48,763 bases of DNA. It comes from Escherichia phage 2B8. Made by a program: the position numbers. The stretch's first letter is position 1. Every line of letters begins with the position of its first letter. Where the stretch lies: the sequence record NC_049952.1, one strand, 5' to 3'. Shown here piece by piece: positions 32,801 through 38,800 of the stretch.

Positions 32801-35800
32801 CAGATCGGATGATTACGGTCCTTGCGGTAAATCCGGCATGTACAGGATTCATTGTCCTGCTCAAAGTCCATGCCATCAAACTGCTGGTTTTCATTGATGA
32901 TGCGGGACCAGCCATCAACGCCCACCACCGGAACAATGCCGTTCTGCTTATCAGGGAAGGCGTAAATTTCTTTCGTCCACGGATTAAGGCCGTACTGGTT
33001 GGCGACGATCAACAATGCGATGAACTGCGCATCGCTGGCATCACCTTTAAATGCCGTCTGGCGAAGAGTGGTGATCAGTTCCTGTGGGTCGACAGAATCC
33101 ATGCCGACACGTTCAGCCAGCTTCCCTGCCAGCGTTGCGAGTGCTGTACTCATCCGTTTTATACCTCTGAATCAATATCAAACTGGTGGTGAGCAATGGT
33201 TTCAACCATGTACCGGATGTGTTCTGCCATGCGCTCCTGAAACTCAACATCGTCATCAAACGCACGGGTAATGGCTTTTTTGCTGGCACCGCAGCGTTGC
33301 AAATGATCGATACAGAGTGATTCAAACAGGTGCTGTGGAAGACCTTTTTCCATGTCGTCTGCCAGTTCTGCCTCTTTCTCTTCACGGGCGATCTGCTGGT
33401 AGTGACGCGCCCAGCTCTGAGCCTCAAGACGATCCTGAATGTAATAAGCGTTCATGGCTGAACTCCTGAAAATGGCTGTGAAAATATCGCCCGCGAAATG
33501 CCAGGCTGATTAGGAAAACAGGAAAGGGGGTTAGTGAATGCTTTTGCTTGATCTCAGTTTCAGTATTAATATCCATTTTTTATAAGCGTCGACGGCCTCA
33601 CGAAACATCTTTTCATCGCCAATAAAAGTGGCGATAGTGAATTTAGTCTGGATAGCCATAATTGTTTGATCCATTTTTTGGGACTCCTGGCTGATTAAGT
33701 ATGTCGATAAGGCGTTTCCATCCGTCACGTAATTTACGGGTGATTCGTTCAAGTAAAGATTCGGAAGGGCAGCCAGCAACAGGCCACCCTGCAATGGCAT
33801 ATTGCATGGTGTGCTCCTTATTTATACATAACGAAAAACGCCTCGAGTGAAGCGTAATTGGTATGCGGTAACGCCGCGCTCAGGCGGCCTTGATAGTCAT
33901 ATCATCTGAATCAAATATTCCTGATGTATCGATATCGGTAATTCTTATTCCTTCACTACCATCCATTGGAGGCCATCCTTCCTGACCATTTCCATCATTC
34001 CAGTCGAACTCACACACAACACCATATGCATTTAAGTCGCTTGAAATTGCTATAAGCAGAGCATGTTGCGCCAGCATGATTAATACAGCATTTAATACAG
34101 AGCCGTGTTTATTGAGTCGGTATTCAGAGTCTGACCAGAAATTATTAATCTGGTGAAGTTTTTCCTCTGTCATTACGTCATGGTCAATTTCAATTTCTAT
34201 TGATGCTTTCCAGTCGTAATCAATGATGTATTTTTTGATGTTTGACATCTGTTCATATCCTCATAGATAAAAAATCGCCCTCACACTGGAGGGCAAAGAA
34301 GATTTCCAATAATCAGAACAAGTCGGCTCCTGTTTAGTTACGAGCGACATTGCTCCGTGTATTCACTCGTTGGAATGAATACACAGTGCAGTGTTTATTC
34401 TGTTATTTATACCAAAAATAAAGGCCACTATCAGGCAGCTTTGTTGTTCTGTTTACCAAGTTCTCTGGCAATCATTGCCGTCGTTCGTATTGCCCATTTA
34501 TCGACATATTTCCCATCCTCCATTACAGGGAACATTTCTTCAGGCTTAACCATGCATTCCGATTGCAGCTTGCATCCATTGCATCGTTTGAATTGTCCAC
34601 ACCATTGATTCTTATCAATAGTCGTAGTCATACGGATAGTCCTGGTATTGTTCCATCACATCCTGAGGATGATCTTCGAACTCTTCAAATTCTTCTTCCA
34701 TATCTCACCTCAAATAAGTGGTTTGCTGCCTAATTTCATTTTCTGGCGACCAACACAAGTCATCTTGCTGTCAGTTGTTTGGATTTCCGGTAGCCTGCCG
34801 CGTAAAGAGCTACGTTTGGAAGACAAGTTGAGCCTTCATATTTTCTGGTCAGCGTTGTCAGTGTTATTACTTCTGCTCTCATTGCTGGTTTGCGCTTGCA
34901 TTGCAAGACCACTCGTGAAGGGGTTGGCCTGTGTAGCTTGTCGGAGCTGATCGCCTTCTGACTTTGCAGATTTGCGCGACGAGCTCTACGGCGAGAAGCT
35001 GCGGTGCCTTTAAATTCTGTTTTTCTGGACATAGATTCCTCCCGAATAAACTTTGGCGATGCAATCTCGAAGCTCCTCCTGAGACGGTTGCTTCGGCATT
35101 GCATCCCACAGCTCATGTGGTTGGGTGATCTGGCTTTTCAGCCACGTAGTCGAGAGTTCGACGTTGTTTAAAGAGCCTGCCAGTCTGTTCCGTTTGGCTT
35201 CCAGCGTCCTACTGACGGTTAAATAGTACGATATGTACTTTATTTGGTCAATACGATTTGTTCTAAAATGAGGTGATTTTTTATAACACTTTGTATTTAA
35301 TAGTGTTGTTTTTTAGCGTGGGTGTATCGCCTCGGCGATGTAAGGAGAGATCAGAATTGCGTTGTTTAGTGAGTTGCACCTATTAATTTTAAAATAAATA
35401 CAATTGGTTATGTGTTTTTAGGTGGGGCGATCGTGAGGCAAAGAAAACCCGGCTCGGTGGCCGGGTTGATGGGATTATCGTTTATTTCTTTGATGTTTCT
35501 TTGCAGACTCAGCTTGAGTGTTTCCATACCTGCGTTTACCGCTATTGTTTTTTCCTCTAGGCTTGCCTTTTTTTCGATCTTCCCACCAGTCAGGTGCCGG
35601 GTCTGGCTCAACATGTAAAGCATCGGCAAGTCCTGATATCAAGCTGTATGACTGAACTCCATCAATGTGCTCTGACAGTGATGGGGTAACATTCTGTCTT
35701 AGTGGATCAAGAATAAAATCAATACCTTTAATTCTGGCGTGTTTGGCGGCAGGCACAAAGTCTGAGTCCCCAGCAACAAGGACAATTACATCAACAAGTT

Positions 35801-38800
35801 TTTCATAAGCTAAAGTCGTGATATCCATCCCTAGCTTGATATCAACTTGTTTTTGTTTGATGTCATAGTAAAAATCATCATTTGTCAGTTCATCCCATTT
35901 TTTCGTTCCTTTCATCAGAGCATCAAGGGAGAATGTAGTTAGTTGCCATCGCTTATTATCAACAAGATTCCCTAATCTTAAGGCCGTTTTTCGAGTTTTT
36001 CTTAACTCTTCATGCAGCTCCGTTCTCAGAATATATGATTTTTCGAGTTTGAAATTCTTGCGACCAGGCGTCTTATTGCCAGGCTCAGGAAGTGGAAGGC
36101 GTGTTTGAATGTCGAGTGGTGGACAGTCATAGAAGTAAATTCTATAAAGCTCAAGTGGTTCCCTACGTTCTTGTGATTGACGTTTTCCATTAAGATGGGA
36201 AAGAACCATTGACCATATTACTTTCATTATGCATTGCGCAGTCAGTTCATGCTCGGCGAAGTGTTTACGATGCGTAGCATGAACACGCTGCATGAAAAAA
36301 CCCGCATCAATTAAAATTGCTGCTTTCTTCATAAGAGTCCCAAAAAAATAGCCCAGAGCCGTTATGCAGATATTAACAATTGTCTGCGAACGGGGCTGGG
36401 CTTGGTTTAATTAATCTATGCCAAGTTGACTGTGCCGTCAACATAAAACTTACTTCCTATCACCCAAACGTCTCTTCTGGCCACTGGCTGGCGATAACTT
36501 TCCCCACAACGGAACAACTCTCATTGCATGGGATCATTGGATATTGCGGGTTTAGTGGCTGTAGAAACACCTGACCGCTATCCCTGATCAGTTTCTTGAA
36601 GGTAAACTCATCACCACCAAGTCTGGCTATGCAGAAATCACCTGGCTCAACAGCCTGCTCAGGGTCAACCAGAATTAACATCCCGTCAGGAAAACTAGGT
36701 TTGGAACCTGTTGGGGCGGTCATTGAGTTACCTTCAACCTCAAGCCAGAATGCAGAGTCACTGGCTTTTTTGGTTGTGCTTACCAATCTCTCCGCATCGC
36801 CTTTGGTAAAGGTTCTGAGTTCTGGAGAGAACATCCCAGCCTGAACATGAGAAAAAACAGGGTACTCATATTGTTTTTTAACTGGGGCCGATGAGTATTC
36901 GCCAACAGGTGAAAATGTCCCGTCGTGGTTGAATGATATGTTATCAATACCAAGGTATTTAAACACCACACCAATATCACTAAGAGATGGATGACGAGAT
37001 CCGCGCAACCAGTGTCCAATTCCACCCTGCGTCATACCTAGCTCTTCGGCTAACTTCTCTTGAGTTATGCCGAGCTCTTTCATTCTGGATCTAGCCAGTT
37101 CATACCATTTCATTTTCATGTCCTTATTATTACGCTCTGTATTGCAACCATCCATGCACAATGTGTATTTTTGCTTGCATTCAAAAAGTACATATTGTAT
37201 TTTTTCTTCATGGTTACTATGGAGGGCATATGAGCAACCTACGAAAATATCGAGAGTCACTGAATATCTCTCAAACAACACTTGCTAAGGCAGTTGGATG
37301 CACACAGGGAGCTATCGGACATTGGGAATCTGGTCGTCGCTTCCCAGACCTTAAAACATGCCGTGCTCTTGTTGCGTGTCTAAACAAGTTAGGCGCAAAA
37401 GTAAGTCTTGATGACGTGTTCCCGCCGGAGCACAAAGCCGCTTAATAAGCGGAGCCGCTCTTTGTAACAACGGACATTCGTCCTACGTCGCTGAAAAGCG
37501 AGCCCCAAGATATCTGACCAACTAAGGCCATATGCGTTTCCACGCATACCTTTCAACTAACTATTCACTATTGGAAATCTTAAGAAATGGAACAAACAAA
37601 TTACAGCAAACTATCACAGCGCGACGTTGATCGCGCAGAAACAGATTTACTTATCAACCTGTCAACGCTTACTCAGCGCGGTCTGGCAAAGATGATTGGC
37701 TGTCATGAATCGAAGATAAGCAGAACAGACTGGAGGTTTATAGCTTCGGTCTTGTGTGCTTTTGGCATGGCATCAGACATCAGTCCGATTAGCAGAGCTT
37801 TTAAGTATGCGCTTGATGAAATCACCAATAAAAAACGCCCGGCGGCAACCGAGCGTTCTGAACAAATCCAGATGGAATTCTGAGGTCATTACTGGATCTA
37901 TCAACAGGAGTCATTATGACAAATACAGCAAAAATACTCAACTTCGGCAGAGGTAACTTTGCCGGACAGGAGCGTAATGTGGCAGATCTCGATGATGGTT
38001 ACGCCAGACTATCAAATATGCTGCTTGAGGCTTATTCAGGCGCAGATCTGACCAAGCGACAGTTTAAAGTGCTGCTTGCCATTCTGCGTAAAACCTATGG
38101 GTGGAATAAACCAATGGACAGAATCACCGATTCTCAACTTAGCGAGATTACAAAGTTACCTGTCAAACGGTGCAATGAAGCCAAGTTAGAACTCGTCAGA
38201 ATGAATATTATCAAGCAGCAAGGCGGCATGTTTGGACCAAACAAAAACATCTCAGAATGGTGCATCCCTCAAAACGAGGGAAAATCCCCTAAAACGAGGG
38301 ATAAAACATCCCTCAAATTGGGGGATTGCTATCCCTCAAAACAGGGGGACACAAAAGACACTATTACAAAAGAAAAAAGAAAAGATTATTCGTCAGAGAA
38401 TTCTGGCGAATCCTCTGACCAGCCAGAAAACGACCTTTCTGTGGTGAAACCGGATGCTGCAATTCAGAGCGGCAGCAAGTGGGGGACAGCAGAAGACCTG
38501 ACCGCCGCAGAGTGGATGTTTGACATGGTGAAGACCATCGCGCCATCAGCCAGAAAACCGAATTTTGCTGGGTGGGCTAACGATATCCGCCTGATGCGTG
38601 AACGTGACGGACGTAACCATCGCGACATGTGTGTACTTTTCCGCTGGGCCTGCCAGGACAACTTCTGGTCCGGTAACGTGCTGAGTCCGGCCAAACTCCG
38701 CGACAAGTGGACCCAGCTCGAAATCAACCGTAACAAGCAACAGGCAGTCGTGACAGCCAGCAAACCAAAACTCGACCTGACAAACACAGACTGGATTTAC

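Follow-up and report, generated by a model that had tools for sequence, protein, structure and literature searches.

The immunity region of Escherichia phage 2B8 as a probable lambdoid genetic switch of the VT2-Sakai/Stx2-II type in a lambda-like backbone

INTRODUCTION

Immunity regions of the VT2-Sakai/Stx2-II type, known from Shiga toxin (Stx) phages, have been sequenced and annotated since 1999-2003, and their half-lambda repressor was described in about 2000. A 2023 paper, PMC10742460, cites Fattah et al. 2000 for a repressor CI of VT2-Sa in which the C-terminal half is lambda-like and the N-terminal half dissimilar. In lambdoid phages, cI has been repeatedly transferred together with cro (PMC9836094). 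The repressor of Salmonella phage epsilon34, gp46, has a C-terminal domain matching those of lambda and HK97 at ~80% and an N-terminal domain matching that of VT2-Sa at only ~50%, and in its cII protein, gp48, the last 18 amino acids (aa) are nearly those of lambda and the rest is weakly similar (PMC2629481). Here, we analyze the immunity region of Escherichia phage 2B8 (NC_049952.1). The window, by which we mean the whole 48.8-kb stretch of DNA analyzed, represents the genome of a temperate phage that is lambda-like. Identity to phage 434 and lambda-family phages is ~96% in the structural half, and identity to lambda is 96-97% across much of the right half. No end-to-end match to it was found among the records of the phage collection. 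With a probability of roughly 0.9, we interpret its immunity region as an ordinary lambdoid genetic switch, of the VT2-Sakai/Stx2-II type, that is embedded in a lambda-like backbone.

RESULTS

Block pattern and joints

Comparison of positions 33001-40500 with lambda (NC_001416) using blastn revealed the following blocks:

33343-34726: gam-kil-cIII-ea10-ral, 98.3% identical to lambda
34727-35344: N, nutL, and the left operator (OL), no lambda match
35345-35467: terminator patch downstream of lambda rexB, 87% identical to lambda
35468-36455: block with an NYN-domain gene in place of lambda rexAB, no lambda match
36456-36870: 3' part of cI (C-terminal domain), 93.3% identical to lambda
36871-37821: N-terminal domain of cI, the right operator (OR), cro, nutR, and the cII body, no lambda match
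37822-40230: 3' end of cII, oop, O, P, and ren, 98.8% identical to lambda

Joints were mapped by comparison with ten reference phages, those in cI and cII being defined by base-level alignments:

34762/34763: homology to phage 21 extends through ral up to the N stop codon, a junction also present in HK97
~34825: joint inside N, where 96.9% homology to HK97 (34699-34825) ends
35296: joint at the outer edge of OL3, where homology to ev099 (97.4% through 36870) begins
36870/36871: joint in the cI interdomain linker, from a multiple nucleotide alignment of cI
37455 and 37555: joints after cro and before cII, where homology to HK97 and then to 21/HK022 starts
37819-37825: joint 3' of the U-tract of the oop terminator, from the cII alignment

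The joints fall on functional boundaries, namely a stop codon, an operator edge, an interdomain linker, and a terminator end. An earlier note on this DNA had proposed a natural immunity hybrid with joints inside cI and cII. The mosaic is real and both joints are present, but there are more than two of them, and the hybrid is not peculiar to phage 2B8, since it represents a known immunity type that is widespread in E. coli (see below).

The repressor gene

The cI gene consists of two parts:

36460-36870, minus strand: lambda-type part, with the cleavage-site region (cut VQA/GMF), the Ser/Lys motifs, and the dimerization/cooperativity domain
36871-37119, minus strand: non-lambda N-terminal helix-turn-helix (HTH) domain of the HTH_3 family and linker, 83 aa

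The joint between a lambda-type C-terminal domain and a different N-terminal domain, which the earlier note had placed near 36870, lies in the interdomain linker, 10 codons upstream of the Ala-Gly cleavage site. From a TAT codon onward, the gene is lambda-like; upstream of the joint it is unalignable to lambda, except for ~10/15 matches just before it. Residues 84-219 are identical to residues 102-237 of lambda CI at 135 of 136 positions (99.3%), with 93.4% nucleotide identity over 36460-36870, and 26 of the 27 differences in 408 nucleotides (nt) are in synonymous codons. The N-terminal 83 aa could be aligned with lambda over the HTH core alone, with 15/50 identities (30%). The Pfam search detected HTH_3 at residues 11-58 (E = 1.9e-10) and Peptidase_S24 (PF00717) at residues 87-209, and in the alignment the VQA-GMF cleavage site, GNSMTAP, and FTFKKL motifs are the same as in lambda. 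An HTH domain combined with an S24 domain carrying the Ala-Gly site and the Ser/Lys dyad assigns the predicted protein to the lambdoid CI/LexA-like type of repressors. The lambda-type N-terminal domain and recognition helix that characterize the lambda immunity group are absent. Counted from the conserved start, the protein (219 aa) is identical to CI of Stx2 phage II and ev017 (219/219) and differs from that of VT2-Sakai by a single residue (218/219).

The homologues begin with MK(M)KW and are 217-221 aa long. The 231-aa version in database records, starting at an ATG inside OR2/OR3 (37120-37155), was rejected for this reason and because the extension would overlap OR3 and OR2; it is probably over-extended. 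The motif AGGA precedes the second cI ATG (37113) by 7 nt and the first (37119) by only 1 nt. This spacing and the predicted start of the promoter PRM suggest that translation begins at the first ATG on a leaderless PRM transcript and at the second on PRE transcripts.

Two further observations concern cI records and alleles. In the VT2-Sakai RefSeq entry (NC_000902, 2465-3160), cI is split into a 42-aa fragment and a 169-aa coding sequence, which points to a frameshift or a sequencing error in the record; the gene is intact in Stx2-II, ev017, and the window. Within the C-terminal coding part (36460-36700), 3'-half synonymous differences from the window follow one pattern in E212 and ev099 and another in Stx2-II and ev017, which suggests further small conversion tracts inside this domain.

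Distribution and age of the immunity module

The cI N-terminal domain was found at ≥99% identity in at least 54 phage records by tblastn against phages. A protein homologue search with the 83-aa domain as a query returned 12 partial fragments and no full-length repressors. The specificity module (36871-37445) is present in 776 of 5,426 complete E. coli genomes (14%), which places VT2-Sakai-type immunity among the commonest immunity types in this species. The full arrangement from 34700 to 38300 (N, the NYN gene, cI, cro, cII, and lambda O) was found at 99.6-99.9% identity in three complete genomes, as prophages of E. coli Z1323HEC0475, O157:H7 493/89, and LSU61 (99.9% in one chromosome), while a fourth genome has it at 97%.

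At the nucleotide level, the C-terminal part of cI matches lambda at 93.4%, HK97 at 95.1%, Stx2-II at 97.8%, and ev017 at 97.3%, while in the lambda-like flanks the match to lambda is 98-99%. The cI joint is therefore older than the assembly of the window genome. The same joint was present in every carrier examined (Louie, E212, ev017, and Stx2-II), including the more distant phage Louie, in which the N-terminal domain is 94% identical. The epsilon34 repressor, from a phage of another host genus, belongs to the same family as the window CI (51% in the N-terminal and ~85% in the C-terminal part). Since it has diverged in both halves, a VT2-Sa-like N-terminal domain must have been paired with a lambda-type C-terminal one long ago.

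Reassortment of repressor domains across the family

A protein database was searched with the cI C-terminal domain alone, and 103 cluster representatives were split at the motif [YF]xYP[VL][FL][ST]xVxAG. At least four classes can be distinguished among the N-terminal parts of these repressors; they include one that is lambda-like, a broad one comprising VT2-Sakai-like and epsilon34-like domains, and one of the HTH_19 type, and the mean N-terminal identity between classes is 26%. The C-terminal identity is almost independent of the N-terminal class (mean 73.8% between classes versus 78.1% within); within classes, the mean N-terminal identity is 67.6%. There were 48 cross-class pairs with C-terminal domains at least 95% identical, and in the 25 best of them the N-terminal domains share 18-32% identity. 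Nine C-terminal clusters (≥92%) hold two or three N-terminal classes, and in all eight mixed groups inspected the switch occurs at the same residue, just before [YF]xYP[VL][FL][ST]. The cI joint of the window is thus one instance of a recurrent module boundary in Enterobacterales prophage repressors. No systematic account of such reassortment across the repressor family was found in the literature searched. It is an expected extension of known mosaicism and provides a useful generalization: one C-terminal domain has been repeatedly paired with unrelated N-terminal domains.

Operators, promoters, and Cro

The 15-bp motif AKTACN5GTAYT (AKTAC-N5-GTAYT) was searched as an IUPAC pattern across the whole window. 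The motif is enriched at OL and OR, and matches without mismatches occur only at OL1 (on both strands, as it is a palindrome), OR3, and OR1; OL2, OL3, and OR2 are copies with one or two mismatches. These sites, the promoters, and cro are listed below:

35225-35239: OL1, AGTACATATCGTACT, a perfect palindrome AGTAC-N5-GTACT
35250-35264: OL2
35283-35297: OL3
37129-37143: OR3
37155-37169: OR2
37187-37201: OR1
35223-35251, minus strand: promoter PL, TTGACC-17-TACTAT, from the promoter scan, overlapping OL1
TTGCAT (37175)-17-TATTTT (37203), plus strand: predicted promoter PR, overlapping OR1
-10 AATAAT at 37131-37126 and -35 at 37154-37149, minus strand: predicted weak promoter PRM
37230-37445, plus strand: cro, 71 aa, all-helical protein of the Pfam HTH_3 type

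Both predicted operators are therefore tripartite, with three operator-like sites each at OL (35225-35297) and OR (37129-37201). Their positions are those of the operators annotated in Stx2 phage II, and the operator/promoter layout of OR is as annotated in AP005154. The half-sites are conserved in VT2-Sakai, Stx2-II, E212, and ev017. Relative to VT2-Sakai/Stx2-II, OR1, OR2, and OL1 are identical, and OR3, OL2, and OL3 differ at one position each; the change in OR3 is within the GTAYT degeneracy, and those in OL2 and OL3 are in the N5 spacer. The earlier note was right to call both the operators and cro non-lambda: the lambda operator half-site TATCACCGC, allowing up to 1 mismatch, does not occur within OL or OR. 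An inverted-repeat search reported no repeats in OL or OR, the 5-bp half-sites being below its 6-bp seed. The centers of the sites are spaced by 25 bp (OL1-OL2) and 33 bp (OL2-OL3) at the left operator and by 32 bp (OR1-OR2) and 26 bp (OR2-OR3) at the right one, so that long and short spacings come in opposite order.

The predicted -10 element of PRM overlaps OR3, and its -35 element abuts OR2; as in lambda, the transcript would begin at the cI ATG (37119) or right beside it, which would put OR2 near -43. In lambda CI, acidic residues of helix 2 contact sigma. They are kept in the window CI, as E and E.

Cro is identical to its counterparts in VT2-Sakai, Stx2-II, E212, and ev017 (71/71), and it shares 35% identity with the N-terminal domain of cI. 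The recognition helices of the two proteins are similar (TQGGIGHW in CI versus TQGAIGHW in Cro, where the helix reads TQGAIGHWESG), as expected if both proteins read the same sites. Cro belongs to the HTH_3 family, like 434 Cro, whereas lambda Cro (PF09048) represents another fold family.

Antitermination and the left joint

The left part of the region contains N and the remnant of a second N gene, and nut sites are present on both sides of the switch:

34760-35032, minus strand: N antiterminator of the P22/HK97/Stx-phage family, 90 aa, arginine-rich motif GTAASRRRARRANLQ
34710-34762, minus strand: fossil 3' end of a phage-21-type N gene, ending in TCVGRQKMKLGSKPLI and a stop codon
35131-35176, minus strand: nutL, with boxA GCTCTTTAAACAA (35176-35164), a hairpin, and boxB UGGCU-GAAA-AGCCA (35144-35131)
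37456-37501, plus strand: nutR, with boxA CGCTCTTTGTAACAA (37456-37470), a hairpin, and boxB UCGCU-GAAA-AGCGA (37488-37501)

N matches Pfam PF25694 with 110.7 bits against a cut-off of 27.9; P22 gp24 and HK97 N score 152 and 57.8 bits in this family, while lambda N has no match to it and hits PF11438 alone. The designation of N as P22-type rather than lambda-type in the earlier note is right at the family level, and its true relatives are the N proteins of Stx phages (89/90 identical residues with VT2-Sakai N versus 41% identity to both P22 gp24 and HK97 N). The C-terminal 22 residues are the only part shared with HK97 N at high identity.

The last ~17 codons of a phage-21-type N gene follow directly on the functional N gene and overlap its stop codon (34760-34762) in another frame. 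The lambda imm21 hybrid matches 33001-34762 of the window at 97.8%, and this match reaches into its own N coding sequence. The left joint of the immunity substitution is marked by this fossil. There is no sieB between ral and N (34632-34759), which is the arrangement of phage 21, unlike that of lambda, P22, and ev017.

Folding of nutL RNA produced two hairpins (z = -3.2), and its minimum-energy fold includes a 5-bp boxB stem with a GAAA loop. In the minimum-energy fold of nutR RNA, the boxB hairpin is absent, and only its inner 3 bp appear in the centroid structure (z = -1.5, not significant); the full boxB stem of nutR is predicted by its likeness to nutL and the sequence UCGCU-GAAA-AGCGA. 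The two boxB stems differ in one compensatory G-C/C-G pair. An additional small hairpin separates boxA from boxB in each nut site (35149-35162 and 37472-37483), which we take to be reminiscent of the nut sites of H-19B-type Stx phages.

Upstream of cIII, an Rfam scan of 33000-40000 detected the lambda cIII thermoregulator element RF01804 (33762-33820, minus strand, 88.5 bits) as its sole match; no family match for oop or the nut sites was obtained.

The cII joint and the replication genes

The right end of the immunity region and the adjacent replication genes comprise the following features:

37587-37821, plus strand: cII body of the phage 21/HK022/HK97 type, 86-87% aa identity to the cII proteins of these phages
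37822-37883, plus strand: C-terminal tail of cII, lambda allele TNKKRPAATERSEQIQMEF, 19/19 aa identical to lambda
37596-37609, minus strand: CII site of the promoter PRE at the start of cII, TTGCTGTAATTTGT (TTGC-N6-TTGT)
37829-37941, minus strand: oop antisense RNA unit, with promoter Po TTGAGT-17-CATAAT (37941-37913), RNA at ~37905-37829, and terminator at 37859-37832
37916-39513, plus strand: lambda-type replication genes O (including ori) and P, 298/299 and 230/233 aa identical to lambda

The cII protein matches Phage_CII (PF05269, E = 8.6e-34), and BLASTP found no alignment between its first 79 aa and lambda. The window from 37555 rightward (37555-40314) is 97.3% identical to lambda imm21. 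The oop unit was placed by the constant offset between the window and lambda (window = lambda - 770), and its terminator and Po were found by scans; the lambda oop coordinates behind this placement are those we take the lambda literature to give.

The crossover is bounded by the last lambda-distinguishing site at 37818 and the first site distinguishing the HK022 tail at 37826. The earlier note had correctly recognized a heterologous N-terminus joined to a lambda C-terminus near 37815, as well as the sharing of the lambda replication module. Its idea of domain-boundary crossovers holds for the cI linker but not for cII, where the crossover is directly 3' of the oop terminator U-tract, the lambda-like block starts with the oop-O-P unit, and the body is simply of the phage 21/HK022/HK97 type. 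This crossover marks where the oop-O-P unit is bounded and where the CII tail begins, and is not a domain crossover of a special kind. It is found elsewhere in the cII-tail/oop zone in other phages: a few bases away in ev017, after ~37846 in lambda imm21, and, in E212, which retains an HK022-type cII tail, between the stop of cII and the beginning of O. Conservation in more than 20 lambdoid phages has been documented for a 33-bp sequence at Po and the 5' end of oop (PMC3349717), which corresponds to 37895-37927 of the window. The cII-tail/oop zone thus looks like a recurrent zone of homologous recombination rather than the site of a unique event.

The gene between OL and cI

In the slot occupied by rexA-rexB in lambda, the window carries two features:

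35475-36332, minus strand: NYN-domain gene (Pfam NYN), 285 aa, within the cI operon
35446-35467, minus strand: intrinsic terminator after the immunity operon, in a patch 87% identical to lambda 35708-35826

The NYN gene is cargo and not part of the immunity specificity. It was assigned to phrog_5783 (function unknown), with weak PADLOC matches (HEC-09, NYN), and is a candidate lysogen-expressed defense or conversion gene. The protein is 100% identical in ev099, which has lambda immunity, and in E212. The occurrence of the same cargo beside a lambda-type cI in ev099 and a VT2-Sa-type cI in the window points to exchange around the shared cI C-terminal domain. Other carriers of VT2-Sakai-type immunity have HicAB, a DUF1828 gene pair, or another open reading frame in this slot.

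DISCUSSION

Organization and origin of the switch

The data presented above show the specificity parts to be divided between two patches, a left one comprising N, nutL, and OL (34763-35297) and a right one comprising the cI N-terminal domain, OR, cro, and nutR (36871-~37555). Between them are the cargo slot and the cI C-terminal domain, a segment common to lambda-immunity phages, and to the right is the phage-21-type cII body followed by the lambda cII tail, oop, O, and P. The repressor would bind the 15-bp AKTAC-N5-GTAYT operators via its own HTH domain, while the lambda-type C-terminal domain would serve dimerization, cooperativity, and, presumably, RecA-stimulated self-cleavage. Concerning the origin of the mosaic, old and rare non-homologous joins may have survived at tolerated boundaries, such as the cI linker and the point where the cII tail begins and the oop terminator ends. 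The conserved flanks, namely the DNA encoding the cI C-terminal domain, the terminator patch (35345-35467), and the cII-tail/oop/Po patch, could then have undergone repeated homologous recombination that spread and reshuffled specificity cassettes, cargo, and replication modules.

Several points weigh against this picture. Lambda cI could equally be called the hybrid. Operator binding, immunity specificity, and self-cleavage are predicted from sequence. The operator spacings (25/33 at OL and 32/26 at OR) are unlike those of lambda (24/20 and 24/23), so that lambda-style pairwise cooperativity is an assumption, despite the near-lambda cooperativity domain. Finally, the cross-immunity of VT2-Sa with lambda, reported second-hand in PMC10742460 from Fattah et al. 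2000, does not fit a simple picture of independent specificity. Heteroimmunity to lambda, which the earlier note predicted, can be reasonably expected from the different recognition helix, operators, and Cro, but it is unproven and is contradicted by this report.

A tentative explanation of the reported cross-immunity, which we consider possible rather than likely, is that the shared C-terminal domain is functional across phages, so that putative mixed dimers or oligomers in polylysogens cause partial cross-immunity or mutual destabilization. The near-identity of this domain to that of lambda (135/136) and the second-hand report of cross-immunity are in line with this proposal. Lambda CI binds individual VT2-Sa operators weakly, with a KDapp of 3.7-6.4 uM versus 0.2-3 uM for its own (PMC10742460), which makes direct operator cross-binding a poor explanation. 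Nothing further on cross-immunity was found in five papers citing Fattah et al. (PMC9803871, PMC4587872, PMC3317979, PMC3064807, and PMC11893012). A broader proposal, for which we would claim no greater likelihood, combines mixed repressor dimers or oligomers in double lysogens with one lambda-immunity and one VT2-Sakai-immunity prophage with the possible use of C-terminal-domain DNA as a homology handle for reassorting cassettes and rex-slot cargo (NYN, HicAB, rexAB) across Enterobacterales. If true, the stability and induction of Stx prophages would be coupled to unrelated co-resident prophages, or partial cross-immunity would result. For Stx prophages, it is also of practical interest whether the repressors of co-resident prophages cross-talk through shared oligomerization domains.

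It is very improbable that the joints stem from a recent crossover in this phage alone, in which lambda itself recombined with a heteroimmune phage, or from a chimera of the lambda imm21 kind, made in the laboratory or by assembly. The flanks are indeed 98-99% identical to lambda, and the architecture mimics lambda imm21, which matches 33001-34762 and 37555-40314 at ~97.5%. However, the cI C-terminal domain is only 93.4% identical to lambda while reaching 97.8% with Stx2-II and 97.3% with ev017, the cI joint is the same in all carriers examined, and the module occurs in 776 genomes. A complete E. coli chromosome also carries the whole arrangement at 99.9%, and it recurs in two O157:H7 strains; this wide distribution rules out an assembly artifact or a one-off event. 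We therefore rejected this explanation on the grounds of distribution and divergence of the C-terminal domain; only the cII-tail crossover (37819-37825) could be relatively recent.

Least credible of all is divergence in place, in which the N-terminal parts of cI and cII would be lambda sequence altered without recombination under diversifying selection for DNA specificity: both cI N-terminal domains are HTH_3 folds with a 30% identical HTH core, and N-terminal domains are less conserved than C-terminal ones within classes (67.6% versus 78.1%), but third-codon-position identity to lambda falls exactly at the joints from 81.6% in the C-terminal domain to 36% in the aligned HTH core of cI and from 94.7% in the tail to 37.8% in the body of cII, the nucleotide sequence becomes unalignable within ~15 bp of the joints, the cI N-terminal part is 83 aa long versus 101 aa in lambda, and the same C-terminal allele is combined with at least three N-terminal classes in many lineages. 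This explanation, which the earlier note proposed to check by alignment, was rejected on the synonymous-site evidence, as the discontinuity is no less sharp at such positions.

Comparison with known systems

The region is best seen as a clean textbook case of lambdoid modular evolution, and it carries little weight as a discovery. A lambdoid switch of the VT2-Sakai/Stx2-II type, as we interpret it, has its closest counterparts in VT2-Sakai (NC_000902), Stx2 phage II and the Stx1 phage (AP005154 and AP005153), 1717, YYZ-2008, and 2851, which have the same immunity region, operator layout, and cI joint. These Stx phages differ in having an HK022-type O, a DnaB-type P, an HK022-type cII tail, and another gene between OL and cI, where the window has lambda O and P, the lambda cII tail, and the NYN gene.

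The immunity module of the window is joined to lambda-type O/P also in E212 (MZ043897) and in the lambda-like phages ev017, ev207, and PhiR11_1. E212 is 97.4% identical to the window over 34585-40314 but is a P22-like podovirus (Lederbergvirus) with an HK022-type cII tail. The 97.4% identity of this 5.7-kb early region (N through P) points to exchange of the entire block of early control and replication genes across virion morphotypes. Phage ev017 differs from the window in its DUF1828 cargo and sieB, and many E. coli prophages with VT2-Sakai-type immunity carry HicAB in the cargo slot.

The same design is found in lambda imm21 (OM418627), a laboratory hybrid with the lambda backbone and O/P, in which N, OL, cI, OR, cro, and the cII body have been replaced. 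It has the same phage-21 cII body, and its left joint at the 3' end of N and right joint in the cII-tail/oop patch are like those of the window; it takes its repressor, cro, operators, and N from phage 21, and its cI C-terminal domain is P22-like, with 36% identity to the window. The lambda-immunity phages lambda, HK97, and ev099 share the cI C-terminal domain of the window (93-95% at the nucleotide and 98-99% at the amino acid level), and HK97 also shares the 3' end of N, the nutR region, and the cII body. All three differ from the window in the cI N-terminal domain, in their TATCACCGC-type operators, and in having a PF09048 Cro, and lambda and ev099 differ also in the family of their N proteins.

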